Positions 10,171-43,584 of a DNA stretch of 64,000 nt are shown in pieces; positions within the stretch are counted from its first letter, which is position 1, and each line of letters starts with the position of its first letter. This DNA comes from Chloroflexota bacterium. GTDB taxonomy: Bacteria > Chloroflexota > Anaerolineae > Anaerolineales > Villigracilaceae. Both the position numbers and the translations under genes were made by a program. Under the pieces are notes generated by a model. It worked only from the letters and a program-made list of their open reading frames with translations. It was not told where the DNA came from and did no database searches. The stretch is from assembly GCA_019873735.1 (NCBI GenBank), contig JAIOAQ010000008.1, forward strand, positions 16,651 to 80,650. Reading direction: 5' to 3'.

Positions 10171-10218
10171 TTGGGGGCTTCAGATGGGATAGGCTTAGCA
10201 GGCTCTTTATTGCCGTTC

Positions 10219-11388: not shown

Positions 11389-11680
11389 TTTGATGTTCCT
11401 CCTTGAAAGTTTTTCTTTGGCTGGTATGATTATAGCATGGCTGTTCAAACAGAGAATTTAAATCTTCAGGCAATAGCATAGGAAGCATTTTTCACGCAAG
11501 TCTGCGAATAACATGCACAGATGGGCGCAGATTTGGATGCAAGCGGGTTTCTTCAACCTGCGGGAGTGCAGGCGGCGACCAGAATACAAGTTTCGTGAAA
11601 TTTGTGTCATTCGTGGCCAAGAACAACACTGCCCTTGATGGGAAACCCATTGGATTCAAAAATTGAAAACCTGGAGGCGT

Positions 11681-14767: not shown

Positions 14768-15718
14768 TTATTCGTTTGGGCTCCAAATGTCGGTAGGCGG
14801 CTGAGGCGGCTGAATCCAGTTGAGCCAGCCTTCTTTTTTGGCTTTGCGCTCCGGCTCGGGTTCAAAACGCACAAGCAAAAGCGTTGCGCTCAAAATGATC
14901 ACGCCTGCCCATTGGAAGAGTGAGAGATTTTCGCGTAGCCAAAAATGACTGGCGATGATGGTAACCAGCAATTCTGCCAACCCCAAAAGGGCCGTTTGCA
15001 TGCCTCCAAGCCGCTTGACGCCCAAGAAGAGCGAGAGGCGCGACAGGAAGGTGACGAGTGTGAGGCCCGCAATCGGCCACCAGGGGTAGGTCAGAGAGGG
15101 GATGCGGCGGTCAAAGAGAAGGTAGGCAGGGATAACCACCAGACTCATAGAGAGCAGGGTGTAAAAAGTAACGGTGGGTGCAGGGATTTCGTAGAGCACA
15201 CGTTGATTGATTGGCAGGTGAAGCGCGTACAGCAGGGATGCTCCCAGCATCATGGCGATGCCTGCAATGTCTGCTTTGGTATCTTGGGTTTTGGTCAGCA
15301 GCAAAACGGCGACGGTTGCCAGCCCGATTCGGATGAGCGTCAACTTGCTGACAGGCTGTCGGTCGAAGGCCATGCTGATGGCTACGAACAGTGGGTAGAG
15401 CGAGTAAAGCATTTGGCCGATGTTTGCGTTCAGCCGTTCCAGCGCAAGGTAGTATAAAATTGAGCCGGTTCCGTTGATAACACCTGCCAAAGCACAGCCC
15501 AGCAGGCCGAAGGGGAAGATATAGAATAGGCTCCGGCCGCGGAGAGAAAGGACAAACAAAAGCAGCAAACTTGCCAGGAATGTGCGCAGGGCTACTACAG
15601 CAAGGGGCGAGAACCCAAAAAGGATAGCCTGGCGTCCAAATACGGGTGCCAGGCCCAAAAAGAAAGCCGAGGCCAGCGCGGCTTGAATCCCTTGGATTTG
15701 CCCTTTCTTCATTTTCAC
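14768..15718 (-). CDS. EamA/DMT-superfamily transporter
   Basis: 316 aa, about 10 TM segments arranged as two EamA-like halves. Same strand as the ThrC-REC gene and 77 nt downstream of it. Confidence 0.8.
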   Translation of the reverse strand: MKMKKGQIQGIQAALASAFFLGLAPVFGRQAILFGFSPLAVVALRTFLASLLLLFVLSLRGRSLFYIFPFGLLGCALAGVINGTGSILYYLALERLNANIGQMLYSLYPLFVAISMAFDRQPVSKLTLIRIGLATVAVLLLTKTQDTKADIAGIAMMLGASLLYALHLPINQRVLYEIPAPTVTFYTLLSMSLVVIPAYLLFDRRIPSLTYPWWPIAGLTLVTFLSRLSLFLGVKRLGGMQTALLGLAELLVTIIASHFWLRENLSLFQWAGVIILSATLLLVRFEPEPERKAKKEGWLNWIQPPQPPTDIWSPNE

Positions 15719-15795
15719 TGGCAGAATCTCGCCATGTACAATCCGTAAATACCGTAAATATGGTTGCTCACCTGAAGGCCGCTTGTAAACCTTTG

Positions 15796-17472
15796 TTATT
15801 TGAGCAAACTGCGTACTTCTTCCAGGAATTCATCGTTCATGAAGTCGCCTTTTTGCAAAAGGGTCTGGATTTGCCCTTCCAGACGGCTTTTTTCTTCGCT
15901 GGTAAGTTCTTTTGCCGTAGAGACAATAACGGGGATGTTGGCCGTTTCCTGGTTGGTCTTCATGGCTTCAATGACTCCGAAACCGTCAATTTCGGGCATC
16001 ATTAAGTCGAGAACGACCAGATCCGGCAATTCGCGGGTGATGACGTCAATGGCTTGCTTGCCGTCTGTTGCCTCGTAGATTGTAAAATTCCCCTGTGATT
16101 GCAGGATGCGGCGAATCAGCCGCCGCGCCTCTGGACTATCATCAACAATGGCTATGCGCGGGAAGCGGTCGGGGGCGACCTGATTGAGGGCGGCCAGCAG
16201 ACCTTCTTGCGGGGTTTCTTCTTTGGCGCGTGAAGGGAGGACAACGCTTCTGGCCCAGTTCTCGCCGAGGATGAATTGCTCGGCTGGCATGGTGTGACCG
16301 GAGCAATTGACAACGACGGTATCAGTCGGTTTGATAACGCCCTGGCGAATTAACTTGAAAAGGCCCGCAAAGGCCACGCCTGCCGCCGGTTCCATGGAGA
16401 TACCTTCCATTTTCGCGATGACGTGCATGGCGCGAAAGGCTTCTTCGTCACTAACGCTCTCGAAGGTCCCTCCAAACTCGTCCACCTGTTTTTTGAGCAA
16501 TTTGTAGGCCCGCCCAGGGTCGCCGGTGGCCAGGGTTTCAATGTGCGTGCGTGGGGAAGCAATGGGGATTGCCGATTCAAGGCCGTTTTTCCATGCTTCT
16601 ACCATGGGCGCACAACCCTCGGCTTGAATGGGCGCAATGGCCGGGATGCGGTCAATCAATCCCATGAGTTTGAGTTCGCGGAAGCCTTTGGCAATGCCAA
16701 TGGGGCCCATCCCGCCACTAATGGCCTGAACATACCAGTCGGGCGCTTTCCAGGTCAGAGGCCTGCCTGATTGCGGGAGTGGGCCAAGCAGAGCCGCCAG
16801 TTGCTCGCTGATCTCGTAGGCGATGGTTTTCATGGCCTCCACCGAGGTGATTGTGCGTGCTCCCATATCCTGATAGAGACCACGTTGTGATGCAAATTCG
16901 GCTGCGACCTGTTTGGTTTGGTCGTAAGAGCCGGTCACTTTGATCACCTGACTGCCATACAATGCAATTTCACGCATTTTTACGGCTGGTACCAGGCTGG
17001 TTACAAAGGCCCATAACTTGATGCCTGCCCGGGCGGCGTAGGCAGAGTAGGCAATGGCAACATTCCCTGTGGAAGCGGCTACCATTTCGGTAATACCGGC
17101 CTCCTTGAGCGCGGCAATGGTGACAGCCGCCTGACGGTCCTTAAAAGAAGTGGTAGGTCCCTGCCTTTCGTCTTTTATGTAAATATTCGGACAGCCAAGC
17201 ATCATCCCCAGGTTAACAGCCTGGATGAGCGGCGTTCCGCCTTCACCCAGTGACAGGCTGGGTTGTGGGTTGCGCACCGGCAGTAATTCTCGATAGCGCC
17301 ATAAATCGAAGGGGCGCGAGGAGATTTGCTCTCCCCAAATCTTGAGGGCAGATTCGTAGTCGTACTCTGCTTCTCGCCACTGACTGTTGCAGCGTGGGCA
17401 ACTGGTGGAGGTGGGAAAGTACGAGGTTGTATGCCCGCAGTCCAGGCATTTGATGGCAAAGGACGGAGACAT
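15796..17472 (-). CDS. Threonine-synthase-like PLP enzyme fused to a C-terminal response-regulator receiver domain
   Basis: 558 aa. N-terminal Cys4 zinc ribbon (CLDCG...CPRC), PLP-lysine motif TTSFKDRQ (K111), ASTGN loop and GGMGP loop. Residues ~438-545 are a REC domain (IVDDSPE, phospho-acceptor context LVVLDLMMPEIDG, VSTAK). Confidence 0.85.
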   Translation of the reverse strand: MSPSFAIKCLDCGHTTSYFPTSTSCPRCNSQWREAEYDYESALKIWGEQISSRPFDLWRYRELLPVRNPQPSLSLGEGGTPLIQAVNLGMMLGCPNIYIKDERQGPTTSFKDRQAAVTIAALKEAGITEMVAASTGNVAIAYSAYAARAGIKLWAFVTSLVPAVKMREIALYGSQVIKVTGSYDQTKQVAAEFASQRGLYQDMGARTITSVEAMKTIAYEISEQLAALLGPLPQSGRPLTWKAPDWYVQAISGGMGPIGIAKGFRELKLMGLIDRIPAIAPIQAEGCAPMVEAWKNGLESAIPIASPRTHIETLATGDPGRAYKLLKKQVDEFGGTFESVSDEEAFRAMHVIAKMEGISMEPAAGVAFAGLFKLIRQGVIKPTDTVVVNCSGHTMPAEQFILGENWARSVVLPSRAKEETPQEGLLAALNQVAPDRFPRIAIVDDSPEARRLIRRILQSQGNFTIYEATDGKQAIDVITRELPDLVVLDLMMPEIDGFGVIEAMKTNQETANIPVIVSTAKELTSEEKSRLEGQIQTLLQKGDFMNDEFLEEVRSLLK

Positions 17473-17541: not shown

Positions 17542-20500
17542 TTATGGGCCTTGAATCCGTCTCAATGCGTTTTCCAGGGCGGATAACAATTCGTCTTCCT
17601 TTAGAAGTCCTTTTTGCAGCAGCCGCTGTCCAAATGCATTTAGTTGTTCGCGTTGTGTGGGTGTCAGATCGCCGCCGGTGACGACCACTACCGGAATTTG
17701 ACGATATTGCTCTTCGGCGCGCAGGCGTTCCAGAATGGCAAAACCATCCAGGTCCTCCATAAACAGATCCAAGACAATGGCATGGGGTGTGGCCGTGGTA
17801 ATGGCTTCCCATCCTTGTTTGCCTCCTTCGGCCAGGATAGGCTTGTACCGTCCGTTCTCCGATAGAATCTTGGCGATCAACCGCAAGTCATCTGCGTCGT
17901 CGTCAATAACCAGGACCTCGCGAATGCTCCCGTCGCTGTTCAGACGGTTGAGAGCATTCAGCAAATCGTCTTCCAGGATAGGCTTGACCAGATAGTCGGC
18001 TGCGCCCAGGTTGAACCCTTTTTCCTCGTCTTCGATGATGCTGCAGATAACTACCGGGATGTCGCGCGTTTCCGGGTTGGCTTTGAGGTCTTGTAAAACC
18101 TGCCAGCCATCGTATCCGGGCATCATAATGTCCAGCGTGATGGCAAAGGGTTTTAACTGCCGGGCGCGTTCGGCAGCCTTGGTGGGATCGGTCAACGAAA
18201 TGACCTGATAGCCTTGGGGTTGAAGATAACGTTCGTACAGGCTGACAACCTGAGGGTCATCGTCAATGGCCAGCACGACTCGGTTTTCTTTGGACGCGCC
18301 GGCATCGTCTTTACCGCGGTAAACAGGAATTGTAAAGTAGAATGTGCTGCCTTTTCCAACCGAACTGTGCAGACCAATCCGACCACCGTGCATTTGCACC
18401 AGATGTTGAGAGATGGACAGGCCCAGACCAGAACCGCCGGTTTTGCGGGTTGGCGACGAGTCCACCTGGGAGAAGGGCTGGAACAATTTGGCCTGATCTT
18501 CGGGGGCGATGCCAGGGCCCGAATCGGTGACGCTGATCATGATTTCCGGGTGGCCAGATGGCCCGGCTTTTACACCGGCCTCCAGGGTAATCGTTCCTTG
18601 TTCGGTGAATTTTGCCGCGTTAGAGAGCAGGTTAAGCAGCACCTGGCGAATGCGCATTGCGTCTGCGCGGACGGGAGGCAACTCTTCGGGGACAATTTTC
18701 TTCAGCGTAATTGGTTTGTCTTTGATCAGCCCGGTGATGGTAGAGAGGACACTGTTGATGGTGTCGTTGAGATTCACCTCATCGAAGGTCAATTCCATCT
18801 TACCGGCCTCAATACGAGACAGGTCGAGGATATCGTTGATCAGCCCAAGCAGATGTTGGCCTGAATTGTAGATGGCGGTCAGGTCTTGTTGTTGGAGTTC
18901 CGAAATCGGACCGTCGATTCCTTTCAGGATGACGCGCGAGAAGCCAATGATCGAGTTGAGAGGTGTCCGCAGTTCGTGACTCATATTTGCCAGGAACTGG
19001 CTCTTCAGGCGGTCCACTTCCCGCATTTCCTTGACGGCCTGTTGGGCCAGTTCGTAGGAGCGCGCATTGTCAATGGCCACAGCAATCTGGTCTGCCAGGA
19101 TTTGCAAAACAGCCGCGTTGTCGGGTGTGAAGGCGTCTACCTCGGTGGACTGGATATCCAACGCGCCAATCACGCGGTTGCCAACGCGCAGGGGGATTCC
19201 GGCCTCTGCCCGCGTTTCTGGCAGAAGGGGATTGGGGCGGTGGAGAGGGTCAAGGGCAGTGTTGTTGATGATCACGGCTTCGCCGGTCGAAGTCACCATG
19301 CCGACAACGGACTTTGAACCGACGGTGATGCTGTGTTGCCGCCTTTTCATTTCTTCACCGGCGTCGCCGGTGGCCTCTTTGAGGACAGCATTGAAGCCAG
19401 TTTCCTCAACCGTGAAAATGGCGGCGTGGTAAAAGCCGAATCTTTCGCGGATGAGATTCACGGCGCGTTTGAAGAGCAGGCTCAGGTCGAGGGTGGATGT
19501 GATCAGGCGGCCAACCTCAGCGGCGGTAGCCAGATATTCGTTTTGCCGGCGTATGGCTTCCTCGGCCCGTTTACGTTCCGTGATGTCTCGCGAAACCCAG
19601 AATACCTGGTCGTCGCTTAGTTTGGTCACCGTAGCGTAAAACCAATACCCGTTTCCACCGATTTCCAGCGGATACTCGATACTGGTGGTCTCGCCGGTGG
19701 TTAAGGTTTTTCGGATGGCCTGCATGAAGGGTTCATGCGTCTCTGCCGGAAGCACCTCTTGAATGGTTTTCCCGACCATATCTTCCGGTGGTTTGTATAA
19801 CCGGTTGGGGTTGGTTGGCGCAACTCTCACATAGCGGCCGTCTTTATCGTACACAATGATGACGTCGGTCATGGCGCTGAAAAGCGCTCGCAATTCGGAC
19901 TCCGATTTACTGAGTGCCTGTACGGCTTGTTGACGGCCCAGAGCAGTTACAATTGCCTCTCCGGCGAACTTTAGCAGGTTTTGTTCCTCTTCGTTCCAGG
20001 TTCTGGGGGCCTGGACGGCGTCAAGTCCCAGGAAACCGATCAGATTGCCGCGTTCCATCAGCGGTGAGCAGATAATGGATTGAATGTTCTCGCGTTCAAA
20101 CTCTATTCGCTCTGCCCGGCCTTCTTTGGGAATATCGGCCACTTTTGGAAAGTAGAAGGTCTGTCCTTTGCGTAACTTGTCAATCAAAAAAGGAAACGTG
20201 TTGATGGGAATGTTTTGCAGATTCTCTATTTGATGGTCAGTATTTGGAGAGCACCATTCGTTGGCGCAACTCATCAATTCACCGCGCGGGTCAATCAGGA
20301 AAACGTATGCACGGTCTACGCCGGAGAAATTCCCTAATCGTTCGAGTACCTGGTCAATCGCGGCAGAGACCTGGATGGGGTCAACGCTGGCAAAGATTGT
20401 AGAGATTTCGCTGGTGAGACGCTCGCGTTCGGCCCGCTGGCGCATTTGCTCAAACAGCAAGGCATTTTGGAGCGCGATGGCGGCCTGGTTAGCAAAAGCC

Positions 20501-22368
20501 ATCAACAGATTGCTGTCATGTTCGTCGTAAACGTTTTCTTCTTTTAGGTTCTGAACGGCCATCAGGCCAAGGAACTCATCGCCGATCATTAGAGGCACCC
20601 CCAGCCAGCTTTTGGGGACCTCGCCAATGATGGTAATGTGGTTCTCCTTGAGCCACTGGGCCACATTTTTTCTCAACAGCAAGGGTTTTCGGGTTTTGAA
20701 AATGTATCCTGTCATGCCCTCGTCAGCACTCAGGGAGACAATTGTCCGGTCGACTTCGGATTCGGTGACGTTAACCGGGTAATTGACCCGATGTGTGCTT
20801 TTGTCATAGATGCCGATGAAGAAATTTGTGGCATCCATCAACCGGGCAACGCCTTGGTAGGTCTCATTCAACACGTCTTGGGCGTCTAACTGTGAACTCA
20901 ATGCCCGCCCCAGGTCGTTCAAGACGCTCATTTCCTCGGCGCGCAGCCGGGTTTGTTCAAAAAGGCGGGCGTTTTGAATGCCAATGGCTACCGTATCGGC
21001 AAAAGATTCCAGTAGTTTTAAGTCGTCCTGGCTGTAGGCGTTGGGCTGATAACTTTGGGCAGAAAGCACGCCGATGATTTCACCGCTGAAGCGGAGCGGG
21101 GTTGCAATAACAGAACGCGGCGATCTGTATTTTTTTTCTGCATCGGCAACGCGCTTGAAGGGCAAAGGCTCTTTTTCAAGATCATTTGCAATGTATGAAT
21201 GACCAAGGCTGAGGACATAGCCGGTGAAACCGGTTTTGACATCATGCTGTTGGGGTTCGACACGGACGCCATTGTCAATGTCATAGGCATTAACAAATAC
21301 ATCTGTCCCAGGGTCGTGGAGGCTGATGAGAAAGGCATCGGCAGGCAAGATGCGGCCGATGATACGATGGGCCGTGCTGTAAACGTCTTCCAGATTCAGG
21401 TTTTGGCTGATTAAGCGACTTAATTCAACCAGAGTGTTTAACTCTTGCGCGCGGCGCTGTTCGGCCTCAAACAGGCGCGCATTCTCCAGTGAGATAGCCG
21501 CCTGGCTGGCGATTGTGCGCAGCAAGTCAAATTGATGTTCGTCATAGAGCCTGGTTTTTTCTGTGCTTTGAAGCACAATTGCCCCGATGACTCTTTCGCC
21601 AATTGCCAACGGGACGCCCATCCAACACAAAGCAGGCCGGTTATTGCCGACGAGAATGATCTCCAGACCCAATTCTTTGACGGTGTCTGTAACGTTTTCG
21701 GCAATGAAGAGTGGTTTGCGCGTGCGGAGGATGTAATCGGTCAGACCTTTGCCCAGTTGCCGTGCAGGCGGGGAGTAGCGCACGCCATGTGATGTTGCAT
21801 AGGGAAATTCGACTCGATTCTCTTTTTCATTGTAGAGTGCAATGAAAAAGTCCTCTGCTTTCATCAACTGACCTGTGTATTTATGAATGGTTTGACAGGC
21901 AGCGTTGATATCCAATTCTGCAGACAATTCGCGCCCCATTTCGTTCAAGATGGCAAGTTCATTGGCCTGGCGTTGGGTTTGCTGGAAAAGGCGCGCATTT
22001 TCAAGGGCAAGTGAGAGTTGGTCGGCTACTTGCTTGACAAGCAGTTTTTCCTCTTCGTCCCATTGGCGGTCTGCATCTTTATCAATAATTTGCAGGGTGG
22101 CCCAGTTTTGAGCGTCAAAGGGGAAGGCAAGTGTCAATTGTGCTCCATCGCCGGCTTTTGTCTTTGTATCGGTGAGGACCTGGCTTGAGGGCGCCGGGAC
22201 GGGTCTGGTTTTCGACTCCTGTCCTGTTTGCTGGCGCACAGGCGCAGCCGCTTCCCCGCTGACGGGTAGACTTTTGGTGCCTTTTCGGCTCGCTTTGGGT
22301 TTGGTTTCTTCGGGTGTAAGGCCGTCAAATAGATTCTTAAGCCGGCTGTTCACTTGTTTCTTTGACAT
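17542..22368 (-). CDS. Giant cytoplasmic hybrid histidine kinase: basic disordered N-terminus, mini-GAF, 4 GAF, PAS, sensor-family GAF, HisKA, HATPase_c, REC, REC
   Basis: 1608 aa. H-box MSHELRTPLNSI (His1131), N/G boxes (LLSNAAKF, DSGPGI, GGSGLGLSIS), REC1 (TLDIMMPGYDG) and REC2 (VLDLFMEDLDG). ENARLFE-terminated GAF repeats recur. No TM segment was seen. Confidence 0.9.
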   Translation of the reverse strand: MSKKQVNSRLKNLFDGLTPEETKPKASRKGTKSLPVSGEAAAPVRQQTGQESKTRPVPAPSSQVLTDTKTKAGDGAQLTLAFPFDAQNWATLQIIDKDADRQWDEEEKLLVKQVADQLSLALENARLFQQTQRQANELAILNEMGRELSAELDINAACQTIHKYTGQLMKAEDFFIALYNEKENRVEFPYATSHGVRYSPPARQLGKGLTDYILRTRKPLFIAENVTDTVKELGLEIILVGNNRPALCWMGVPLAIGERVIGAIVLQSTEKTRLYDEHQFDLLRTIASQAAISLENARLFEAEQRRAQELNTLVELSRLISQNLNLEDVYSTAHRIIGRILPADAFLISLHDPGTDVFVNAYDIDNGVRVEPQQHDVKTGFTGYVLSLGHSYIANDLEKEPLPFKRVADAEKKYRSPRSVIATPLRFSGEIIGVLSAQSYQPNAYSQDDLKLLESFADTVAIGIQNARLFEQTRLRAEEMSVLNDLGRALSSQLDAQDVLNETYQGVARLMDATNFFIGIYDKSTHRVNYPVNVTESEVDRTIVSLSADEGMTGYIFKTRKPLLLRKNVAQWLKENHITIIGEVPKSWLGVPLMIGDEFLGLMAVQNLKEENVYDEHDSNLLMAFANQAAIALQNALLFEQMRQRAERERLTSEISTIFASVDPIQVSAAIDQVLERLGNFSGVDRAYVFLIDPRGELMSCANEWCSPNTDHQIENLQNIPINTFPFLIDKLRKGQTFYFPKVADIPKEGRAERIEFERENIQSIICSPLMERGNLIGFLGLDAVQAPRTWNEEEQNLLKFAGEAIVTALGRQQAVQALSKSESELRALFSAMTDVIIVYDKDGRYVRVAPTNPNRLYKPPEDMVGKTIQEVLPAETHEPFMQAIRKTLTTGETTSIEYPLEIGGNGYWFYATVTKLSDDQVFWVSRDITERKRAEEAIRRQNEYLATAAEVGRLITSTLDLSLLFKRAVNLIRERFGFYHAAIFTVEETGFNAVLKEATGDAGEEMKRRQHSITVGSKSVVGMVTSTGEAVIINNTALDPLHRPNPLLPETRAEAGIPLRVGNRVIGALDIQSTEVDAFTPDNAAVLQILADQIAVAIDNARSYELAQQAVKEMREVDRLKSQFLANMSHELRTPLNSIIGFSRVILKGIDGPISELQQQDLTAIYNSGQHLLGLINDILDLSRIEAGKMELTFDEVNLNDTINSVLSTITGLIKDKPITLKKIVPEELPPVRADAMRIRQVLLNLLSNAAKFTEQGTITLEAGVKAGPSGHPEIMISVTDSGPGIAPEDQAKLFQPFSQVDSSPTRKTGGSGLGLSISQHLVQMHGGRIGLHSSVGKGSTFYFTIPVYRGKDDAGASKENRVVLAIDDDPQVVSLYERYLQPQGYQVISLTDPTKAAERARQLKPFAITLDIMMPGYDGWQVLQDLKANPETRDIPVVICSIIEDEEKGFNLGAADYLVKPILEDDLLNALNRLNSDGSIREVLVIDDDADDLRLIAKILSENGRYKPILAEGGKQGWEAITTATPHAIVLDLFMEDLDGFAILERLRAEEQYRQIPVVVVTGGDLTPTQREQLNAFGQRLLQKGLLKEDELLSALENALRRIQGP

Positions 22369-23122
22369 ATTCCATTAACTCCTGGGCCAAAACACGATAT
22401 TGTTGCGAACCACGACTACCCGGTCTGTATTCAGTGATAGGCAGGCCTGAGATAGGACTTTCACGCAATTTGGTGTCGATTTCAATAACTGTGTTGAACA
22501 ATCCTTCTCCAAACGTAGCGCGCAATTGCTCATAAATGTTTCTATGGGTACGGTTGCGCCGGTCAAGCAATGTCACCAGGATGCGGTATGCAAGGCCGGG
22601 GTTGTTATCTTCGCGCACGCGCCGGACAATGGACATCATGCTGCGCAGGGCATACGCCGAGAAGTATTCAGCCTGGGTGGGGATAATGAGCAAGTCTGCG
22701 GCGCTCAAAGCATTCAGGGTAATTGTGCCCAGGGCTGGCGGGCAGTCAAACAGAATGTAATCGTAGGGTAGTTCTCCGGCAGATTCCAGGGCGTGTTTCA
22801 GGGCGGTCAGGTGATCCACCCGCATGGGCAAGTAATGTTCGGCCGTCTCTATTTTTGAACCGGATGGGAGGATCGACAGATTCTCGATGCCGGTCTTTTG
22901 ACAGGCATCTGAAACAGGAAATGCCTCAAGCAGCACATCGCCCGAGGTGTGCTGTTCCTTTTCTGGATCAATCCCTACTGCCAGGCTTAGATTAGCCTGG
23001 GGGTCAAGATCGCAGAGCAAGACTCTCTGCCCACTTTCGGCCAATGCTGCACCGAGCGAGACGGTGGTGGTCGTTTTGGCGACCCCGCCTTTTTCGTTTG
23101 AGATTGCAATTTTATATGCCAT
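22337..23122 (-). CDS. Orphan ParA/Soj/MinD-superfamily ATPase
   Basis: 261 aa. Deviant Walker A ISNEKGGVAKTTT, Walker A' LLCDLDPQ and Walker B YILFDCPP. No parB lies nearby. The stop overlaps the kinase start by 32 nt. Confidence 0.9.
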   Translation of the reverse strand: MAYKIAISNEKGGVAKTTTTVSLGAALAESGQRVLLCDLDPQANLSLAVGIDPEKEQHTSGDVLLEAFPVSDACQKTGIENLSILPSGSKIETAEHYLPMRVDHLTALKHALESAGELPYDYILFDCPPALGTITLNALSAADLLIIPTQAEYFSAYALRSMMSIVRRVREDNNPGLAYRILVTLLDRRNRTHRNIYEQLRATFGEGLFNTVIEIDTKLRESPISGLPITEYRPGSRGSQQYRVLAQELMEYVKETSEQPA

Positions 23123-23149: not shown

Positions 23150-26035
23150 CTATTTGCCTTTTTCTCTGGTTTGCGTTTCAGGTGGAGGGGCATAGGGAAG
23201 AATCTCCACATGGCTGGCTCCCAGCACCTGACGCAGTTCCGCCAGCGCTGTCTGGATCATGCTCTCTGGGTCGGTTTTGCTGCGGATCTTGGTGGTGATT
23301 TCTGAAACGGTGCGTTCACGCAGGGCGCGTCGGGTTGTTTCCTCAAACAGTCGGGCGTTTTCAAGTGCCAGCGCTAACCGGTCGGAGATGGAAGACAAAA
23401 GGGCAATTTCATCATCATCCCAGCGGCGATTGGGATCTTGCGAACGAATGTTCAAGACGCCGATGACTTGCTCGCGCAGACGGATGGGAATTGCCAAAGC
23501 CGGCGTTTCCTCGTTTTCTTTGGCTTTTGAGCCTTTGGGATAAATGGTTACAAACTTGCCACTTGCAAGCGCTTGCATGATTTCTGCCCGCTGAACCGTC
23601 TGGTTGACAGGCCTGCCGCCGCCGATGGTTTTGTGGTAGCCCAGATATTTTCTGGTTGCAAGACTCTTCCAGGATTGAGCCAGATACTGCCTTTGCAGTG
23701 CCTGGGCTTCCAAAAGGGCGCGCTGTAAATCGGTAACCAGCCTCGAATTGTGGATGGCAATGGCAATTTGATCGGCAAGGATGCTGAGGGTTTTCAGGTT
23801 TTCTTCTGAAAAAGCATTTGCTTCTGTGCTTTGAACATCCAAAACGCCGATGATTTCATTGCCGATTTGCAAGGGCAGAGCGGCCTCTGAACGGGTTTCT
23901 GGCAAGTCGGGGTTATCAAAATAGACAGCATCTTGTCCAACGTCAAGGGCAATGCGGGCTTTTCCGGTTTCGGCAACGTTGCCAACAATGCCCACCTGTC
24001 CTATTTTCAATTTGTGCTGCCGTTCCAACATACGTTTTCCGCCGGGGCTGTTAGCGGCTTGCAACACAGCATACTCGCGGTTTTCGTCAATCAAGAAGAT
24101 GCCAACGTGATAGAAAGAGAATTTTTCGCTGACCAGTGATGTGACCAGTGGGAGCAAGGCTTCTGTTTGTTGCTGCGATGCAGCCACCTTTGCGACTTCG
24201 CTGACCAACTCTAACTCCCGCGCCCGCTCCGCGCTCCTGTGCATGGCCTGCTCCAGTTCTGCCGTGCGTTCGGCGACGCGCTGTTCCAGGCCAGACAGCA
24301 TTTGGCGGATTTGGGCTGTCAGTTCATTGAATGTGGTCGCCAGGTAGCCAACTTCATCATTGCTGGCAACTTTGGCCTGCGTTTCCAGATTCCCGACCTT
24401 GAATTGCTCAACGGTGTGCGTCAGGTCCAGGATTGGGCTGGTCAGTTGACGCGCAACATGGATTGCCATGAAAGAGACGACTGCAGTGATAAGAACGCCA
24501 AGCAGGTTAATGGTGCGAACCCGCTGCTGCACAAGCGCAATTGTCTCTGCTTTTGCCTGATAGACGATTGCTCTCCAGGGCAGGTTGTCAACTGCTTCTC
24601 TCTTGTTGGGAGAAAAGATTGGGGCTGCACTCAATATGCTATCGCCTTGCTCCAGGTTGACCTCAACATAACTTTCCTTTTCAAGATTTTCCAGCGCCTG
24701 AACGAGTTCTGGCGGTGACAGGTGAATTCCATCCAGGGCTAAATGCTTCGTTGGATTGCCCAAGAAGACGTATTCTGCCCTGCCCGTTTCACCAATCGGT
24801 TGGGAAAGCAGTTGTTGCAGTTCGGCAATAGTATAGCCAGTCTGCAATACGCCCATAATATCCCCTGTTGCCCGATCGCGGATGGGGACGGCAATGCGGA
24901 AAATGTACATTCCGATGCTTTCGTCATATTCGGGAGTACCGATAAAGATGTCTCCTGCCCCGTTATTGTAGGCCTTTTGCCACCATTCCTCGTCTGCCTG
25001 GTAATAGTCAGAAGTTCGATTTGTTGCCGCTACCAGGCCGCCGAGGACATCGGTGACGATCATTTCGACATGACCGGGGAAAGACTGTTGGAAGTTCCTC
25101 AACTGTGATGAAGCGATATTGTATAAGCGCCCGTTGACAAGAGGCTGTTCGTTATTGTTAGCCGCATCTGCCTGACGCCATATCGCATCAAAGCGATTGA
25201 TTTTCTCCATCTCCTTTTGCAAATCGGGGTCGTGCGACCGATTTGCGCGCGCAACTTGCCATTGAATATCTGCATTTGTGCTGAGCGCCTGAATGGCGTC
25301 TATTTGCTGGGCCAGGATGCTTCCCATAGCCTGTCCGCGTGACTCGGCTATAGGCTGCAAACTCTTGCCGGCGTTTTCGGTCAAGACGTTTGTCAGCGTC
25401 AGGGATGTGATCTGACCAAAGGCAATGGAAATCACGGCTGCAATGCTTACATACGCGATTAAAATTTTGTTGACGAATTGTAGTTTTCCAAACTGCGTAA
25501 TGATCAGAAAGAAAAAGACGAGAATTGTAAGCAGAATCAGGCCTGCACTGAAGCGTTCAACAATGGGGACAAGGATGCGCTCGTAAGGCACCAGGATATC
25601 TATCAGGCCAATGGCCAGGCTGGCCAATATTCCGGCAAAGATGACGCGCACCAGCGAACGTTGAGGCAGGGTTTGAATGCCAATCAGGACTGTCAGCAGT
25701 AAAGTGGTGATTCCTAATGCGCTTCCAATGTTGGCGATCAAGGCGGCTACACTTAACGCAGCGTAGAATACAATGCCAATCAGGGTCCAGGCCGCCAGGG
25801 CGTGATCGCCTTTCTGATTTCTACGAATGACCCAAAAATTTGCAGCGATGACGATGGTGAACGTTGCGATCAGCAGGAAATACCGCCAGTCTCTTTCTGA
25901 GAAGAGAAGGTATATGTAGAACGCTATTGGAATGACCGCCAGAGCCGACGTTAATAGTGCCAGGCGGTGAGTGTTTTGCTGCTGTGTGCTGGCTTGCTCA
26001 TCTTCATACGTACTTAGATTGACCGTTTGTGTCAT
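23150..26035 (-). CDS. Output-less membrane sensor paralog 1 (polytopic N-terminus + Cache-like + HAMP + signalling helix + GAF + mini-GAF + conserved tail)
   Basis: 961 aa. About 6 N-terminal TM segments, then an extracytoplasmic Cache-like segment and a further TM. HAMP is followed by LEQRVAERTAELE. The GAF carries FYHVGIFLID ... NPDLPETRSEAALPL ... GVLDVQST. I see no kinase, cyclase, MCP or phosphatase motif. Confidence 0.8.
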   Translation of the reverse strand: MTQTVNLSTYEDEQASTQQQNTHRLALLTSALAVIPIAFYIYLLFSERDWRYFLLIATFTIVIAANFWVIRRNQKGDHALAAWTLIGIVFYAALSVAALIANIGSALGITTLLLTVLIGIQTLPQRSLVRVIFAGILASLAIGLIDILVPYERILVPIVERFSAGLILLTILVFFFLIITQFGKLQFVNKILIAYVSIAAVISIAFGQITSLTLTNVLTENAGKSLQPIAESRGQAMGSILAQQIDAIQALSTNADIQWQVARANRSHDPDLQKEMEKINRFDAIWRQADAANNNEQPLVNGRLYNIASSQLRNFQQSFPGHVEMIVTDVLGGLVAATNRTSDYYQADEEWWQKAYNNGAGDIFIGTPEYDESIGMYIFRIAVPIRDRATGDIMGVLQTGYTIAELQQLLSQPIGETGRAEYVFLGNPTKHLALDGIHLSPPELVQALENLEKESYVEVNLEQGDSILSAAPIFSPNKREAVDNLPWRAIVYQAKAETIALVQQRVRTINLLGVLITAVVSFMAIHVARQLTSPILDLTHTVEQFKVGNLETQAKVASNDEVGYLATTFNELTAQIRQMLSGLEQRVAERTAELEQAMHRSAERARELELVSEVAKVAASQQQTEALLPLVTSLVSEKFSFYHVGIFLIDENREYAVLQAANSPGGKRMLERQHKLKIGQVGIVGNVAETGKARIALDVGQDAVYFDNPDLPETRSEAALPLQIGNEIIGVLDVQSTEANAFSEENLKTLSILADQIAIAIHNSRLVTDLQRALLEAQALQRQYLAQSWKSLATRKYLGYHKTIGGGRPVNQTVQRAEIMQALASGKFVTIYPKGSKAKENEETPALAIPIRLREQVIGVLNIRSQDPNRRWDDDEIALLSSISDRLALALENARLFEETTRRALRERTVSEITTKIRSKTDPESMIQTALAELRQVLGASHVEILPYAPPPETQTREKGK

Positions 26036-26071
26036 TGTTTATTACCTCGTGCCAGACTGCAAAGACAAACG

Positions 26072-28231
26072 TTACTCCGACGGGGGCGCAGGCTGTAATT
26101 GGATTAATACTTCTGAATCTTGAACGATTTTGCTGATTTCTTCGGCTGCAGTTTGCAAGATGCTGTCCATTTGCATTGAACTGCCCAGTTTGGCTGTCAG
26201 GTCGGCAATAATTCGGTCCTGCTTTGAGCGGCGGGTTGTCTCATCCAAGAGGCGTGCATTTTCAATGGCCAGAGCAACGCGGTCTGCAACGGCCTGAGCC
26301 ACATCTACTTCATCCTGATCCCAGCGGCGTCTGCCGGGGATGCGCACGTTAAGGACACCGATAGACTCGCCTCGCAGTTTCAACGGAATCGCCAGCACGG
26401 CGGACCCATCGGCTTCAATTTCTTGAACTGGTGCCCCGGCATGCAGGGCTTTTTGAATTGCCGGTAGTTTGAGCGGGGCTTCCAGCGGCGTTGCACCGGT
26501 GATGGAGTAATGATAGCCAAGTTGCTTGCTTGTCTTGAGTACCCGGCTCCATTTTTCCTGCAAGTACTGTTGTTGCAGGGCCTGTGCTTCATTCAGGGCT
26601 CGATTTGTTTCTTCAAAGAGGCGGGCGTTTTCGATTGCGATGGCCACCTGGTCGGCCAGAATCTCCAGCGTCTCGATATCGTCTTGTGAGAAGGCGTTTG
26701 GTCTTGTGCTTTGGACATCTAGGGCGCCGATGATTCGGTTGCCTATTTGAAGAGGCAAGGCAATTTCTGAACGCGTGTCAGGCAAATCGGGGTTGTTGAA
26801 GAAGACGGCATCCTCGCCAACGTCGAGAGCGATACGGCTCTTACCTGAACCGGTTACAAAACCGACAATGCCTGTCTGACCAACTTTGAGGCGGTGCCCG
26901 CGTGCCAGCATCCTTTGCCCACCGATGCTGTTGGAGGCACTGAGAATGGCATTTTCTCCGCTGGGGTCGAGGAGGAAAATACCAACATGGTAGTGCCCCA
27001 AGGCTTCACTGATTTGCCTGGTGATTTCCAGCAGCAGGGGCTTGAGTTCGCGAATCGAGGAAATTGCCCGGTTGACATCAGCAATGGCTTTGAGCCGAAT
27101 GGCTTTCTCGGCGTTATACTGATTTGCGGCTTCAAGTTCTGCTGTGCGCTCGGCAACCCGTTGTTCGAGAGAACCGACCAATTCTTGAATTTGATCGGTC
27201 ATTGTGTTGAATGTCCTGCCGAGGTTGCCTAACTCATCTTCAGATGTTATCTCGGCGCGGATGGCGAAATTCCCTGCCTGGATTGCCTGGACGGCGGCCT
27301 GTAGTTTGCCCATGGGCGTGATAATCCGCCGGAGCGTGAATGCTATGGCCGATGAGGCTTGCCAAACAACGAGGACCAATGCGACTAAAAGACCCAGCGT
27401 GAGCAGGCCAAAAGCGCGCAGGGCCTCGCTAACGGCCTGTTCCACGATGACATACCAGGACGTCCCGGGTACTGTTGCAGCAGCAGCGATGACGTAGTTT
27501 TGCTGGATGCTGCGGAAGATGTTGAGCGCCGATCTCTCCATGTCTGCAGGGGTTGAACCGGTCACCTGAGAGTACGATGTGCCACTGCGGACAACTTGCA
27601 AATCGCGATAGGCCAGGATTTGTCCGTTGTTATCCACGATGTAAGCCTGTCCCGTCTTGCCGATGCGCAAACTGGTCACCGGGTTCCATAGGGCGGTAAA
27701 GTCCGTGCGGACAAGCAAGGTGCCGGCAAAGTTTTCGGAACTATCTTTGACCGCCACTGCAAGGTCAACGAATGGTACGCCAAACAGGCTGTAGTCCACT
27801 GGCCCAAGGTACATCTGGCCCTGTTTTACGGTTTCCAGCCAGGGCTGACTAGTGACCACAGGCGCAGATTCTCCCACGCGGCGTCGCTGGGCAATCACAT
27901 TTCCTTGGGGGGTGATAAGCAGGGCCTCAAAAATGATGGGCTGACGCTCTAACAGGAAGCGTAAGACCTGCTCTTTGTCATTGGTGAATGTGAGTGCCGT
28001 GCTGGTTGCGTGCAGGTCGGCTTCGATAACACTGAGTGACTTTGTGAAAGCCAGCGCGGCAGCGACGGCTTCGCCGTTAAGTTCTCTGGTAACACCTCGA
28101 AGCGATGAATTCAGGCCAACGACGATTTCCGTCAAGAGGCCCGCAATGGCTATCAGGCTGAGCAGTGTAACGCGCAGGGACAATTGTCTCCTGAGTGTTC
28201 CACGATTTCTTTGAGAGGATGATCTATTCAT
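26072..28231 (-). CDS. Output-less membrane sensor paralog 2 (TM - double-Cache-like - TM - HAMP - signalling helix - GAF - mini-GAF - tail)
   Basis: 719 aa. Two TM segments bracket a ~250-aa periplasmic domain. Cytoplasmic motifs: HAMP, SLEQRVAERTAELE, HYHVGIFLLD, DVGEDAVFFNNPDLPDTRSEIALPL, GALDVQST, ENARLFEE. Confidence 0.8.
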   Translation of the reverse strand: MNRSSSQRNRGTLRRQLSLRVTLLSLIAIAGLLTEIVVGLNSSLRGVTRELNGEAVAAALAFTKSLSVIEADLHATSTALTFTNDKEQVLRFLLERQPIIFEALLITPQGNVIAQRRRVGESAPVVTSQPWLETVKQGQMYLGPVDYSLFGVPFVDLAVAVKDSSENFAGTLLVRTDFTALWNPVTSLRIGKTGQAYIVDNNGQILAYRDLQVVRSGTSYSQVTGSTPADMERSALNIFRSIQQNYVIAAAATVPGTSWYVIVEQAVSEALRAFGLLTLGLLVALVLVVWQASSAIAFTLRRIITPMGKLQAAVQAIQAGNFAIRAEITSEDELGNLGRTFNTMTDQIQELVGSLEQRVAERTAELEAANQYNAEKAIRLKAIADVNRAISSIRELKPLLLEITRQISEALGHYHVGIFLLDPSGENAILSASNSIGGQRMLARGHRLKVGQTGIVGFVTGSGKSRIALDVGEDAVFFNNPDLPDTRSEIALPLQIGNRIIGALDVQSTRPNAFSQDDIETLEILADQVAIAIENARLFEETNRALNEAQALQQQYLQEKWSRVLKTSKQLGYHYSITGATPLEAPLKLPAIQKALHAGAPVQEIEADGSAVLAIPLKLRGESIGVLNVRIPGRRRWDQDEVDVAQAVADRVALAIENARLLDETTRRSKQDRIIADLTAKLGSSMQMDSILQTAAEEISKIVQDSEVLIQLQPAPPSE

Positions 28232-28283
28232 TCCAGGTGCTCCAAAAGAGTTTGTACCGCGGCGGCTTAAGATACTTTGCAGG

Positions 28284-29477
28284 TTACTTGAGCGTCTCTA
28301 CGAAGGTCCAGGCGCCATCTACAACTTTCATGCCGCCAATGGCTGAGGGAGAAATATCACCCTGAGGGTCAAAATGCCAGGTCCCAAAAATGCCGCTGTA
28401 TTCACCCAAATTTTGCATCGAGGCAAAGACGGCTTCACGGGTAGGCTGCTCGGCGCGTCCAATAGCATAAAGAAGTACGTTAACAGCCTCATATATGGCA
28501 CCATCGTAAGAAGACGGGGTTTTTCCGTATTCGTTCTGATAACTTCTCACGAAGTCTCTGGCGGCAGGAGTATCCAGGTTGGCGGGAGGAATGGCCACCA
28601 CCGTGCCGTAGATATTCTCTAGTTGTTCTTTCTCTAACAGGGCAAAGATATCGTCTACCGCTATCCCATCTGGCCCCATTAATGGGATGGTGGCATTGGC
28701 CTGGCGGATGGCCCGAACAATATATTCGGCATTTGAGCCAACGCTGCCGGCCAGAAAGATGATATCAGGGCTGGCGTCCAGTGCTTTTGTAACCAGGGCC
28801 TCTGCTGTGGCAGTGGGCAGATCTCCTTCGGTCGTGAACCCTGATTTGCCAACGATCCCAAGACCAATGTCTTTGGCGGTGATTTCAAACACGCCGGCTA
28901 CGCCTTTGCCGTATACGTCCTCGCCGTAGATGATGTAAACTTTTTGGTAGCCCATTTTTTGAATCCAGCGCGCGGCAGCCGCGCCTTGTACCTCGTCGCT
29001 GGCTACCGTCCGGAAGTAAGTACGTTGGCCGGTGGGGTAGTAAATCCCCGGTTCGCCCAGTTCGTAGCCTGGCTTGGTCAGCCCCGGCCAGGTATTGCTG
29101 CCTGAAATTGTGGTCACCGAGGCGCGGTTTAAGATGGGGATGATTTCTTTGGCTGTGCGGCTGGAATCTGGACCAACCCAACCGACAACGCTTGGGTCTT
29201 GGGCTACTTTTTCTGCATTTTGGATGACAAGCGGTGTAGAAATACTCTCGCTATTGGGCTCTGTTTCGCTCAGGACCATCAACTCTACATTGTACGGACC
29301 GGCTTTTCCGTTCGCCTTCTTTATAGCCATTTCAACTGCATGCAAACTGTCTTGTCCGTAGGTGGTTCCCAGCGGCACGCTGAACGCGATTTTCACATTG
29401 CCGGAGGGCTTATTAACACAGCCTGATATCAGCAGGCCGATAATAATGGTAATGACGAGCAGTTTTTTTATGGTCAT
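28284..29477 (-). CDS. Lipoprotein, type-1 periplasmic solute-binding protein (LivJ / branched-chain amino-acid-binding-like)
   Basis: 397 aa. Signal peptide with lipobox LISGC and a Peripla_BP_6-like pattern. No ABC permease or ATPase gene occurs anywhere in the window. Confidence 0.75.
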   Translation of the reverse strand: MTIKKLLVITIIIGLLISGCVNKPSGNVKIAFSVPLGTTYGQDSLHAVEMAIKKANGKAGPYNVELMVLSETEPNSESISTPLVIQNAEKVAQDPSVVGWVGPDSSRTAKEIIPILNRASVTTISGSNTWPGLTKPGYELGEPGIYYPTGQRTYFRTVASDEVQGAAAARWIQKMGYQKVYIIYGEDVYGKGVAGVFEITAKDIGLGIVGKSGFTTEGDLPTATAEALVTKALDASPDIIFLAGSVGSNAEYIVRAIRQANATIPLMGPDGIAVDDIFALLEKEQLENIYGTVVAIPPANLDTPAARDFVRSYQNEYGKTPSSYDGAIYEAVNVLLYAIGRAEQPTREAVFASMQNLGEYSGIFGTWHFDPQGDISPSAIGGMKVVDGAWTFVETLK

Positions 29478-29508
29478 TTTTTTCTCCTAACTCAGATAAT
29501 GTAAGGTG

Positions 29509-31746
29509 CTATGATTCGTCCTGCCGTAATTGAATGACTACTTCTGAGCCTGGTATGGCATGCCCCAGTTCTTCAGCGGCGGTCTGCAGGATGTTTTGGA
29601 AATTCACAGTAGCGCCGATACGGGCAGAAATATCGCTGATGATTTTTTCTTTTTGAGCCCGTTTTTCCGATTCTTCAAACAGGCGGGCCGTCTCCAGGGC
29701 TGCGCCTACGCGTTCGGCCACGGCTTGAAGTAGAGCAATTTCGTTTTGTGACCATCTTCGTTCAGGGTTGCCCGACTGTACGTGAATGGTCGCCAGTGTT
29801 TTACCGCGAATCCTTACCGGAACGGCCACGGCCGGCTTTCGCCCGGCGTTCTCGTTTGCTGCCGCTACTGCAATGGTACCGGTCTGGATGGCGCGGCGAA
29901 TCTCCTCATGCTCGACTGGCCGGGTAATGGCTTTGGTCTCCTCGGTGAGACTATGATAAAAACCAATCACGGCGCGTCGGGCGGTGACAGATTGCCACCT
30001 TTCGGCAACGTACTGGCGGTTGAGCGTTTCAATCTCGGCCAGGGCTTGACGTGTTTCATCATACAGACGCGCGTTCTCAATCGCGATGGCGATCTGGTCG
30101 GCCAGAATCTGCAAGATACTGGCGTCTTCGCTCTTGAAGGCGTTGGGGGTGGTGCTTTGGATGTCCAGCGCGCCGATGATTCGGCCGCGCGCTACCAGCG
30201 GCAGCGCCATTTCGGAGCGGGTATCTGGGAGGTCGGGATTGTTGAAGAAAACGGCATCCTCTCCCACGTCCAGGGCGATGCGGGCCTTTCCTACGCCGGT
30301 GACGTAGCCGACGATGCCTTCCTCGCCAATCCGCAGGCGGTGACCGCGGGCCAGCATACGCTTTCCGCCTTCGCTGTTTGCGGCGCGCAACCTGGCAAAG
30401 GTGTTTGTTTCGTCGTTCAAAAAGATGCCTGCATGGTAGAAGCCAAATCGATTAGAAACAACTTCTGTGATTAGGGGCAAAAGTGTTTCAAGATTCTGCT
30501 CGCTGGCAATAATGCGGGCTACGTCACTGATGGTCTGGAGTTGATCGGCGCGCTGATTGCTCTGGATGGTCGTTTTCTCGAGTTCGGCTGTGCGTTCAGC
30601 AACGCGTTGCTCCAGAGAGCCGACCAGGCTGCGCAACTGCTGTGTCATGCTGTTGAAGGTGTTTGCCAGTGTGCCGATTTCGTCTTGGGATTGGATTGAG
30701 ACCTCTGTTTGCAGGTTTCCTTTCCCAATTTCCAGGGCAGCCTTTGTCAGGTCGCGCAAGGGGCGGCTGATTTGCCGCGCCAGGCTGAAAGAGAATGCGC
30801 CGCCCGTGATCACAGCCAGAAAGGCGGCAATAACCAGAATGGTCTGTGCCCTTTGGGTGTTTGTTGTGACACTGGCGAGTTGTTCGCTTGCATATTCGGT
30901 CCCGCTTGCAGCGATATCCAGCGCCAGGGGCTGAATGGCTTCGGCTGCAACGGTGTATTGTTGTGTATGTTGATTGATTTCAGCATCAATGCGCGCCAAC
31001 TCTTTAAGGGCTGCTTCATAACGGTCTAAAGAGGACGCGATGTTCTGAGACTCGATTTCGGGTCTGTTGGCCAGGGCAGCGCGGATTTGGTCAAGCGCAA
31101 GTTTTGTGGCCTCAAGGTCCGCCTGCCTGCCGTAGACTCTGTATTTTCTTTCACTGACCTGCAGTTGCAGCGCAAGGGATAGTAATTCGGGGTCGGCCTG
31201 GGCGCCGATTTGGCTTAGCAGCAGTTGTTCGGCGTCTTCCAGTTCTCCAACAACGCCTTTTCCCTCTGTGCCCCGTTCCTTGATCAAGTTGGTAACCGCA
31301 TTGAATTCACTGCGATACATTGCAAGCGCGGCTGAGAGGTCTATCAATTTTGGATTGATGCGGGCGAACAGAGGGCTTTCTTGTCCAGCCGTCAAATTGC
31401 CCAGTTTGTCAATGGTCTGGCGAATATCGGTGATGGCATTGCCATGCGGAATGAGATAGTTGTTGACGGCGTTTTCGTAACCCTCTTCCTGCCAGTGGAG
31501 CAGAAAAGCCTGTTCCTGACGGCGCGCGGCAATTAAGTCGTTTTGAATCCGATTGCCCAGGTCGCGGATTTGCAGGCCTTCTACCAGGGCTTCATTGACC
31601 GATTTCTGGATTGTCAGGAAACTGAAGTAGTTGACCAGGGCCAGGGCAATGACAAAGAAGATGATTAACCCAAAGCCAAGCAACAACCGTGTATTGATGG
31701 GCCGATCACGGAATTTCAACCTGGGATTTTGACGACTGGGACTCAT
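29509..31746 (-). CDS. Output-less membrane sensor paralog 3 (TM - helical 4HB/CHASE3-like - TM - HAMP - signalling helix - GAF - mini-GAF - tail)
   Basis: 745 aa. A long all-helical periplasmic region lies between two TM segments. Cytoplasmic motifs: HAMP (DEIGTLANTFNSM), SLEQRVAERTAELE, FYHAGIFLND, DVGEDAVFFNNPDLPDTRSEMALPL. Confidence 0.8.
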   Translation of the reverse strand: MSPSRQNPRLKFRDRPINTRLLLGFGLIIFFVIALALVNYFSFLTIQKSVNEALVEGLQIRDLGNRIQNDLIAARRQEQAFLLHWQEEGYENAVNNYLIPHGNAITDIRQTIDKLGNLTAGQESPLFARINPKLIDLSAALAMYRSEFNAVTNLIKERGTEGKGVVGELEDAEQLLLSQIGAQADPELLSLALQLQVSERKYRVYGRQADLEATKLALDQIRAALANRPEIESQNIASSLDRYEAALKELARIDAEINQHTQQYTVAAEAIQPLALDIAASGTEYASEQLASVTTNTQRAQTILVIAAFLAVITGGAFSFSLARQISRPLRDLTKAALEIGKGNLQTEVSIQSQDEIGTLANTFNSMTQQLRSLVGSLEQRVAERTAELEKTTIQSNQRADQLQTISDVARIIASEQNLETLLPLITEVVSNRFGFYHAGIFLNDETNTFARLRAANSEGGKRMLARGHRLRIGEEGIVGYVTGVGKARIALDVGEDAVFFNNPDLPDTRSEMALPLVARGRIIGALDIQSTTPNAFKSEDASILQILADQIAIAIENARLYDETRQALAEIETLNRQYVAERWQSVTARRAVIGFYHSLTEETKAITRPVEHEEIRRAIQTGTIAVAAANENAGRKPAVAVPVRIRGKTLATIHVQSGNPERRWSQNEIALLQAVAERVGAALETARLFEESEKRAQKEKIISDISARIGATVNFQNILQTAAEELGHAIPGSEVVIQLRQDES

Positions 31747-31766
31747 GGAGTGTCCTCTCAGACAAA

Positions 31767-32783: not shown

Positions 32784-32848
32784 TATCTTTTACTCCTCTG
32801 TGATCAGGTTAAGAAAGAATGGTTATCGAGGACATTTTCTCTGCTGGA

Positions 32849-34777: not shown

Positions 34778-34780
34778 CTC

Positions 34781-36838: not shown

Positions 36839-36842
36839 TGCA

Positions 36843-38426: not shown

Positions 38427-38432
38427 TCCGAA

Positions 38433-42350: not shown

Positions 42351-42357
42351 GGGAAAC

Positions 42358-43507: not shown

Positions 43508-43584
43508 GTCACGGTGGAACAAGAAAAAATACAGCCACCTGGCCGCTTTGGGGGCGCAAGATGGCTATACTTCTGTAATTATTG

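Follow-up and report, generated by a model that had tools for sequence, protein, structure and literature searches.

A ThrC-family PLP enzyme fused to a receiver domain in a conserved two-component gene module of Anaerolineae

In almost all two-component systems, the pathway leads to transcription, second-messenger turnover or chemotaxis. Response regulators with an enzymatic output are known, but in these the output is a signalling enzyme and the receiver domain is located N-terminally; CheB, PleD/WspR, RpfG and the PP2C-type regulators all combine a full D-D-D-T/S-K receiver with an attached enzyme and occur beside a kinase. Here we analyze a gene from a Chloroflexota bacterium of the Anaerolineae (assembly GCA_019873735.1, contig JAIOAQ010000008.1, positions 16,651 to 80,650; this stretch of 64,000 nucleotides (nt) is hereafter called the window, and all positions refer to it), which encodes a protein with the same combination of a receiver and an enzyme next to a histidine kinase. 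Unlike in CheB, PleD or RpfG, the output of this fusion is a pyridoxal phosphate (PLP)-dependent enzyme of amino acid metabolism, and the receiver is located C-terminally. We lean, with moderate confidence, towards reading it as a phospho-regulated, specialized enzyme of the ThrC family rather than a housekeeping threonine synthase, whose substrate or product would pass through the transporter encoded next to it.

The enzymatic part has several described relatives. Archaeal-type threonine synthases (NF006050/PRK08197, TIGR00260) share with it the Cys4 zinc ribbon, the PLP fold and the SFKDR and STGN motifs at 33-38% identity; they pass the cut-offs of both models, while the window protein fails both, and the fusion differs from them by the added receiver, a motif signature of its own and a different substrate-phosphate loop. 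The short bacterial threonine synthases (Thermus thermophilus 1UIM/1V7C, Mycobacterium tuberculosis 2D1F, Aquifex aeolicus 2ZSJ and Bacillus subtilis 6CGQ) are 30-32% identical to it in the catalytic core and superpose with template modelling (TM) scores of 0.81-0.89 normalised to the target, but possess neither the zinc ribbon nor the receiver. Regulatory modules attached to a ThrC-family enzyme are also found in the plant threonine synthase (2C2B), with its N-terminal extension activated by S-adenosylmethionine (SAM), and in zinc-ribbon threonine synthases fused to a LeuA domain; these respond to small-molecule effectors, whereas the fusion carries a receiver that would depend on phosphorylation and be coupled to a histidine kinase. 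Homocysteine synthase MetM of Streptomyces and cysteate synthase belong to the same superfamily and use O-phospho amino acids as substrates (for MetM, as cited in PMC12172450), and the cysteate synthase CapA2 (9K3C) aligns with the model of the fusion over 435 columns. In contrast to the MetM/MetO system, the fusion has no adjacent gene for a MetO-like carrier, its flanks being occupied by the kinase and an EamA transporter, and Rfam detects no SAM riboswitch in the window. A literature search for the PALP-receiver architecture or for thrC of Anaerolineae returned nothing relevant, so that the initial annotation of this stretch, which had called the architecture uncharacterized, agrees with the absence of a describing paper. 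The combination of a regulator with enzymatic output and a regulated threonine synthase is found nowhere in the literature searched, although databases already list the fusion protein itself, with names that are generic or probably over-specific.

The fusion protein and its distribution

The gene forms one uninterrupted open reading frame (ORF) of 558 codons according to the ORF list and the translation, and lies on the minus strand together with all other genes of the module discussed below (Table 1). Pfam assigns residues 74-392 to PALP (E 6.8e-64, 216 bits against a cut-off of 35) and residues 440-541 to Response_reg (PF00072; E 5.9e-20, 71.9 bits against a gathering threshold of 30.2). A check at the level of codons locates K111 in SFKDR, ASTGN at 133-137 and GGMGP at 253-257 in the enzyme part, and VDD at 443-445, D489 in VLDLMMP and T519 in VST in the receiver. 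Thus, the initial annotation was right in describing an intact enzyme part with a Cys4 ribbon and these three motifs; of the complete receiver that it proposed, VDD, D489 and VST stand, but the conserved lysine is K541 and not K521 of the 'AK' that it had named. In a pairwise alignment, residues D12, D13, D57, T87 and A88 of CheY correspond to D444, D445, D489, T519 and A520 of the fusion; this alignment ends short of K109 of CheY, and the conserved β5 lysine was assigned to K541 because of its position at the end of β5 in the model and its invariance (in the motif LLQKG) across 109 homologs, down to 47% identity. The receiver has a complete phospho-acceptor pocket with all five catalytic residues kept, and the enzyme part retains the PLP lysine and the PLP-binding loops.

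Table 1. Positions in the window of the fusion gene, its parts and the other genes of the module
Feature	Position	Strand	Evidence
EamA/DMT transporter, 316 amino acids, 77 nt downstream of the fusion	14768..15718	minus	PF00892, two repeats, 96.5 bits
ThrC-family PLP enzyme with C-terminal receiver, 558 amino acids plus stop	15796..17472	minus	ORF/translation, Pfam PALP + Response_reg
Receiver domain, residues 439-558	15799..16158	minus	Pfam, CheY mapping
Phospho-acceptor D489 codon	16006-16008	minus	
Linker, residues 405-438: disordered stretch, then conserved EGLLAAL helix	16159..16260	minus	pLDDT, conservation
Fold-type II PLP domain, residues 74-392	16297..17253	minus	Pfam, AlphaFold, Foldseek
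PLP lysine K111 codon	17140-17142	minus	
Cys4 zinc ribbon C9/C12/C25/C28	17389..17448	minus	Translation check; four Cys invariant in 109 homologs
Soluble hybrid histidine kinase, 1608 amino acids, 69 nt upstream of the fusion	17542..22368	minus	Pfam
ParA/MinD-like ATPase	22337..23122	minus	Pfam AAA_31/CbiA/ParA; stop overlaps kinase start by 32 nt
Sensory block: seven Cache/HAMP/GAF proteins and two solute-binding proteins	23150..42461	minus	Pfam

The AlphaFold model of the fusion has an overall predicted local distance difference test (pLDDT) score of 84 and a predicted TM score (pTM) of 0.71. The enzyme core is modelled with pLDDT of about 90 and the receiver with about 77-91 up to strand β5, with values below 50 for the C-terminal helix α5 and for residues 405-422 of the linker. 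According to the model, the linker of roughly 30 residues is flexible, and its residues G424, L425, A428 and L429 are kept in at least 90% of the homologs. The best superpositions found by Foldseek are with threonine synthases (TM 0.88 normalised to the target), followed by cysteate synthase CapA2, serine dehydratases and TrpB.

The survey of databases for such fusions that the initial annotation had proposed shows the architecture to be recurrent. Among 5.8 billion proteins, at least 120 clusters have the same PALP and REC domains, with lengths of 552-559 amino acids and 75-93% identity; they originate from JGI, ENA, NCBI and Logan assemblies and are named 'threonine synthase' (JGI) or 'pyridoxal-phosphate dependent enzyme [Anaerolineales]' (NCBI). 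At the 90% identity level, more than 230 clusters share the fusion architecture. Remoter members, found in a representative-level search and analyzed with Pfam, are 50-66% identical, and some have two receivers and about 700 amino acids; such PALP-REC-REC variants include P0123, P0125, P0292 and about 20 others. With P0134, the unfused protein nearest to the fusion (47% identity), as the query, almost all matches were again fusions, about 100 further ones at 45-52% identity to P0134, some of them with two receivers; unfused forms are the exception within the fusion clade. When one genome was scanned for each GTDB species, at least 286 species genomes were found to encode relatives of the fusion; among the best 80 of the 286, 79 are labelled Anaerolineales, Anaerolineae or Chloroflexota (e.g. 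Ca. Villigracilis and Brevefilum). The remaining one is a contig of 3315 nt labelled 'uncultured Thiobacillus sp.' (locus L048), which bears a fusion 77% identical to the window protein; its label is probably a binning error.

Both halves of the protein are equally conserved (mean column conservation of 86% in the enzyme and 84% in the receiver). An alignment of 109 fusions extending to 47% identity shows no variation at the four cysteines, K111, S134-N137, S252-G254, G256, P257, T316, G317, P319, G320, H393, D445, D489 and K541; each of the 109 sequences has D or E at position 444 and T or S at position 519. The fusion is subject to strong purifying selection and occurs widely in Anaerolineae. 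That it arose as an assembly, frameshift or gene-calling artefact joining two genes is exceedingly improbable: the reading frame is continuous, a fused ORF of 536-562 amino acids recurs in the assemblies of JGI, ENA, NCBI and Logan and in the 286 species genomes, and the linker is conserved in length and contains a conserved motif. The continuous frame and the independent assemblies rule this explanation out, and with the invariance of K111, D445, D489 and K541 both objections that the initial annotation had foreseen, an artefact and degenerate residues, fail.

Is the enzyme a threonine synthase?

The window protein scores below the cut-off of every threonine synthase model in NCBIfam: it reaches 253.2 against 303 for NF006050 (zinc-ribbon threonine synthase), the nearest model, and 153 against 167.1 for TIGR00260. 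Unfused zinc-ribbon relatives at 33-38% identity, one of them with a C-terminal LeuA domain, are above both cut-offs (controls P0150, P0156, P0160, P0177 and P0200); in a search with P0150, the nearest relatives that pass were archaeal housekeeping threonine synthases (Methanotorris, Bathyarchaeia, Methanomethylicia and Baldrarchaeia), a result that bears on the ancestry of the family. Neither the members of the fusion clade nor the unfused proteins closest to them reach the NF006050 cut-off, and a member from Thermoflexus is the sole fusion that just passes TIGR00260 (172 against 167). The 'threonine synthase' annotations of the fusion clade are probably over-calls. A cysteate synthase (TIGR03844) was rejected on score, 106.4 against a cut-off of 324.9. 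Appended domains were also seen among the zinc-ribbon threonine synthases, with a C-terminal LeuA allosteric/dimerisation domain in P0177 and P0210 (about 611-616 amino acids) and an N-terminal inositol-monophosphatase domain in P0214 (718 amino acids).

The motifs invariant in the fusion clade are FKDRQ, D202-x-G-[AI]-[RK], SGGxGP, TGDPG, CAPM and NxSGHT. Residues T88, N154, S155, R160 and N188 of the Thermus enzyme, which we take to be those holding the phosphate of the substrate, align to V138, G204, A205, S210 and G253 of the fusion, with an uncertain alignment in the loop; the Thermus numbering was checked by the alignment of its K61 with K111. With this uncertainty, and with a basic residue still present in the phosphate-site loop of the fusion (R206, or R/K at position 211), the replacement of these positions is suggestive rather than decisive. 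Because P0150 passes the threonine synthase cut-offs and yet also deviates at several of the motif positions, a prediction of the substrate from single residues is indecisive.

A genuine threonine synthase, which converts O-phosphohomoserine to threonine and is perhaps the main one of the cell, with flux set by phosphorylation and export through an RhtA-like EamA protein, is an explanation that we consider unlikely, even though the best sequence, hidden Markov model (HMM) and fold matches of the fusion are all threonine synthases (the best sequence matches in the PDB being the short bacterial enzymes at about 30-32% identity) and JGI and KEGG call it thrC or K01733. It is further favoured by the Thermoflexus member above the TIGR00260 cut-off, by the LeuA-domain relatives, which show that C-terminal regulatory add-ons recur in the family, and by the locus L085, where an unfused relative sits between a gene of the PAPS-reductase family and a gene for a protein of 203 amino acids, with an aspartokinase gene after the latter. 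The scores below all cut-offs and the five differing phosphate-site positions count against it. So does the genomic context: hom and thrB never adjoin the gene, and about 90 related loci contain no hom, thrB or second thrC; a tblastn search of the window and 84 loci, with three bacterial threonine synthases as queries, matched the fusion gene only. The transporter gives a weak generic DMT match (TIGR00950, 52.7 against 230), so that the analogy with the exporter RhtA drawn in the initial annotation holds only at the level of the EamA/DMT family.

The genome of Thermoflexus hugenholtzii JAD2, the one cultured carrier for which a gene table has been published, bears on the same question. Its KEGG table lists two K01733 genes, 2143740765 with a score of 190 and 2143741955 with a score of 73 (PMC8129789 supplement). 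The latter adjoins mtnA (2143741956) and is four genes from comEA (2143741951), while thrB (2143740498) is located elsewhere in the genome (PMC8129789). Because this gene order matches that of the Thermoflexus-type loci L087 and L091 (IF-2B/MtnA, fusion, ComEA), the low-scoring copy is the fusion ortholog, and it coexists with a canonical thrC that scores better. A second canonical thrC, which the initial annotation had suggested looking for, is thus found in T. hugenholtzii and in none of the related loci. On the other hand, T. hugenholtzii has extracellular homoserine or threonine and three RhtA genes (PMC8129789), a possible remaining link to threonine that speaks for the threonine synthase. 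Taking together the scores, the phosphate-site changes, the lack of hom and thrB nearby and this second thrC, control of threonine-pathway flux is not supported in the form given by the initial annotation, and a specialized paralog is more likely than a housekeeping enzyme.

The Thermoflexus-type members (L087 8949-11623 and L091 8950-11611) also point to another function. Here the fusion lies 4-6 nt after the IF-2B/MtnA gene, no kinase adjoins it, and in L091 a PNP_UDP_1 gene is found 3 kb away; these neighbours hint at a link to methionine salvage. Together with the PAPS-reductase-family gene beside the unfused relative, with the homocysteine synthase (MetM) and deaminase activities reported for ThrC homologs (PMC12172450), and with cysteate synthase CapA2 as a structural neighbour, they would agree with a catabolic or salvage enzyme, i.e. 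a deaminase, a γ-lyase or a sulfur-replacement enzyme (MetM-like, cysteate-synthase-like or linked to methionine salvage), the amino acid substrate of which would be imported by EamA and which would become active once the Cache, LivJ-like or PnrA-like sensors perceive this substrate outside the cell. We regard this as improbable, and less probable than a threonine synthase, given that no sulfur-carrier gene or SAM riboswitch is nearby, the cysteate synthase HMM score is far below its cut-off (106 against 325), and the mtnA link is missing from the subclade of the window.

The gene module and its neighbourhood

The gene order around the fusion was compared in 82 related loci from other organisms. 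A kinase C-terminus directly precedes the fusion in 71 of 71 loci, a ParA-like gene occurs in all 64 whose upstream flank spans at least 7.5 kb, and the EamA gene directly follows the fusion in 75 of 76; L029 (8233 nt) is the only related locus that has ample downstream sequence and yet no EamA gene after the fusion. In the subclade of the window, the order ParA-like ATPase, GAF/PAS hybrid kinase, fusion, EamA is fixed. The distances given by the initial annotation, 69 nt between kinase and fusion and 77 nt between fusion and EamA, were both verified, measured from the stop of one gene to the start of the next. The overlap between the ParA-like and kinase genes is identical, at 32 nt, in L001, L002 and L090; its recurrence, together with the presence of the ParA-like gene in 64 of 64 loci, suggests translational coupling of the ATPase to the kinase and a functional complex of the two.

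The kinase contains five GAF domains, PAS, HisKA, HATPase and two REC domains according to Pfam, and no membrane segment is predicted at its N-terminus. No Hpt domain was detected by Pfam in the kinase or the cluster at E 0.01 or better. The second receiver of the kinase ends in LLQKG (kinase residues about 1580-1590), as does the receiver of the fusion (LLQKGDF), and this shared ending suggests that the two are related paralogs. The ending, which is unusual, and the lack of an Hpt domain also fit an inverted arrangement, in which the PLP domain is the input, an amino-acid-binding sensor or pseudo-enzyme that gates the receiver, and the receiver is a phosphate sink or a connector for the kinase; C-terminal receivers are typical of proteins in which the receiver modulates signalling, such as CheV and hybrid kinases. 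This possibility is slight, since 109 sequences show no variation in the PLP lysine, the PLP-phosphate loop or the motifs on the substrate side, as expected of an active enzyme, and the conserved adjoining transporter suggests a flux of small molecules.

Upstream of the ParA-like gene, the seven consecutive Cache/HAMP/GAF proteins of the sensory block have no kinase, cyclase or other output domain in the Pfam scan, and L001, L002 and L090 have comparable HAMP/GAF genes ahead of their ParA-like gene. Two solute-binding proteins are interleaved with them, one of the Bmp/PnrA type and one matching Peripla_BP_6, in accord with the LivJ-like protein named in the initial annotation, and the Pfam scans likewise bear out its statement that the fusion is the only protein of the block joining a receiver to a recognizable effector. 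The sole evident transmitter for the sensor array is the soluble GAF-rich kinase downstream of it. A tRNA-Gly(CCC) gene (43584-43656, minus strand), the only match of Rfam and ARAGORN in the window, marks the upstream boundary of the block. Control by a riboswitch or an attenuator was considered and rejected, since Rfam reports only this tRNA and no riboswitch in the window, and promoter- or terminator-like sites are no commoner there than in shuffled sequence; no convincing terminator was found between the genes of the module, which are probably co-transcribed.

Other arrangements occur among the relatives. In L089, which has no ParA-like gene, a HAMP/GAF sensor and a kinase precede a two-receiver form (10001-12091), and the place of EamA is taken by a stand-alone receiver and a GNAT acetyltransferase. 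A ComEA-like gene with SLBB and HHH_3 domains lies just past the fusion/EamA pair of the window on the opposite strand (13224-13811, plus) and directly adjoins the fusion in the Thermoflexus-type loci (L091 11704-12318), and may be a remnant of ancestral synteny.

Farther away, an ORF of 899 amino acids (60443-63142, minus) combines RodA/FtsW (SEDS), penicillin-binding protein dimerisation and transpeptidase domains in one protein. A low-GC patch (58009-60402, GC content 0.495) holds several small genes, among which inspection by eye recognized a gene resembling nickel superoxide dismutase (58315-58815, motif HCDIPCGIYDP) beside a small peptidase-like ORF, as well as GroES, glutaredoxin-like and ferredoxin-like ORFs. 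For two further ORFs, of 679 amino acids (4718-6757, minus) and 274 amino acids (51322-52146, minus), Pfam gives no match at E 1e-4 or better.

Proposed mode of action

If the fusion is a phospho-regulated, specialized ThrC-family enzyme, the adjacent kinase would phosphorylate D489, and would do so directly because an Hpt domain is absent. Phosphorylation would then turn the PLP enzyme on or off, probably through a receiver-driven change in dimerisation or domain closure, with the flexible linker and its EGLLAAL helix permitting docking or a rearrangement of the dimer. The substrate of the enzyme would be an activated amino acid, probably an O-phospho one, and the reaction a β/γ elimination or replacement; the co-transcribed EamA transporter would carry the product or the substrate through the membrane. 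The output of such a pathway would be chemistry and transport rather than transcription.

Several points weigh against this reading. Control by phosphorylation is something that we infer from sequence only. The coexistence with a canonical thrC is seen only in Thermoflexus, whose fusion has neither the kinase nor the EamA context, and this same fusion is the one that scores nearest to threonine synthase, above the TIGR00260 cut-off. With the uncertain loop alignment and a basic residue at R206 or R/K211, the protein could still bind O-phosphohomoserine, and the unfused close relative two genes from aspartokinase fits the threonine pathway. Finally, a receiver C-terminal to its effector is atypical for response regulators.

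A bolder version, to which we give tentative and rather low credence, takes the whole block as a two-component pathway with a secreted metabolite as its output, leading from the sensors and the ParA-like ATPase via the kinase and the receiver-enzyme to the exporter. Here the array of membrane Cache/HAMP/GAF sensors that have no output domain and the translationally coupled ParA-like ATPase would feed the GAF-rich kinase, which would phosphorylate the receiver of a neofunctionalized ThrC-family enzyme; this enzyme would make an amino-acid-type product other than threonine, and the DMT transporter would export it as a signal or a cross-feeding compound. The block may sense amino acids or nucleosides, as the initial annotation had proposed.

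Should the specialized, phospho-regulated enzyme prove to be the right reading, the module would represent a kinase cascade that acts directly on metabolism and on the exchange of small molecules with the environment. The kinase core, the receiver and the enzyme would together constitute a compact system for the control of a fold-type II PLP enzyme by a receiver domain. Digesters, activated sludge and sediments all harbour abundant Anaerolineae, which are known cross-feeders, and a synthase and an exporter gated by a signal would be relevant to their interactions with neighbouring organisms.

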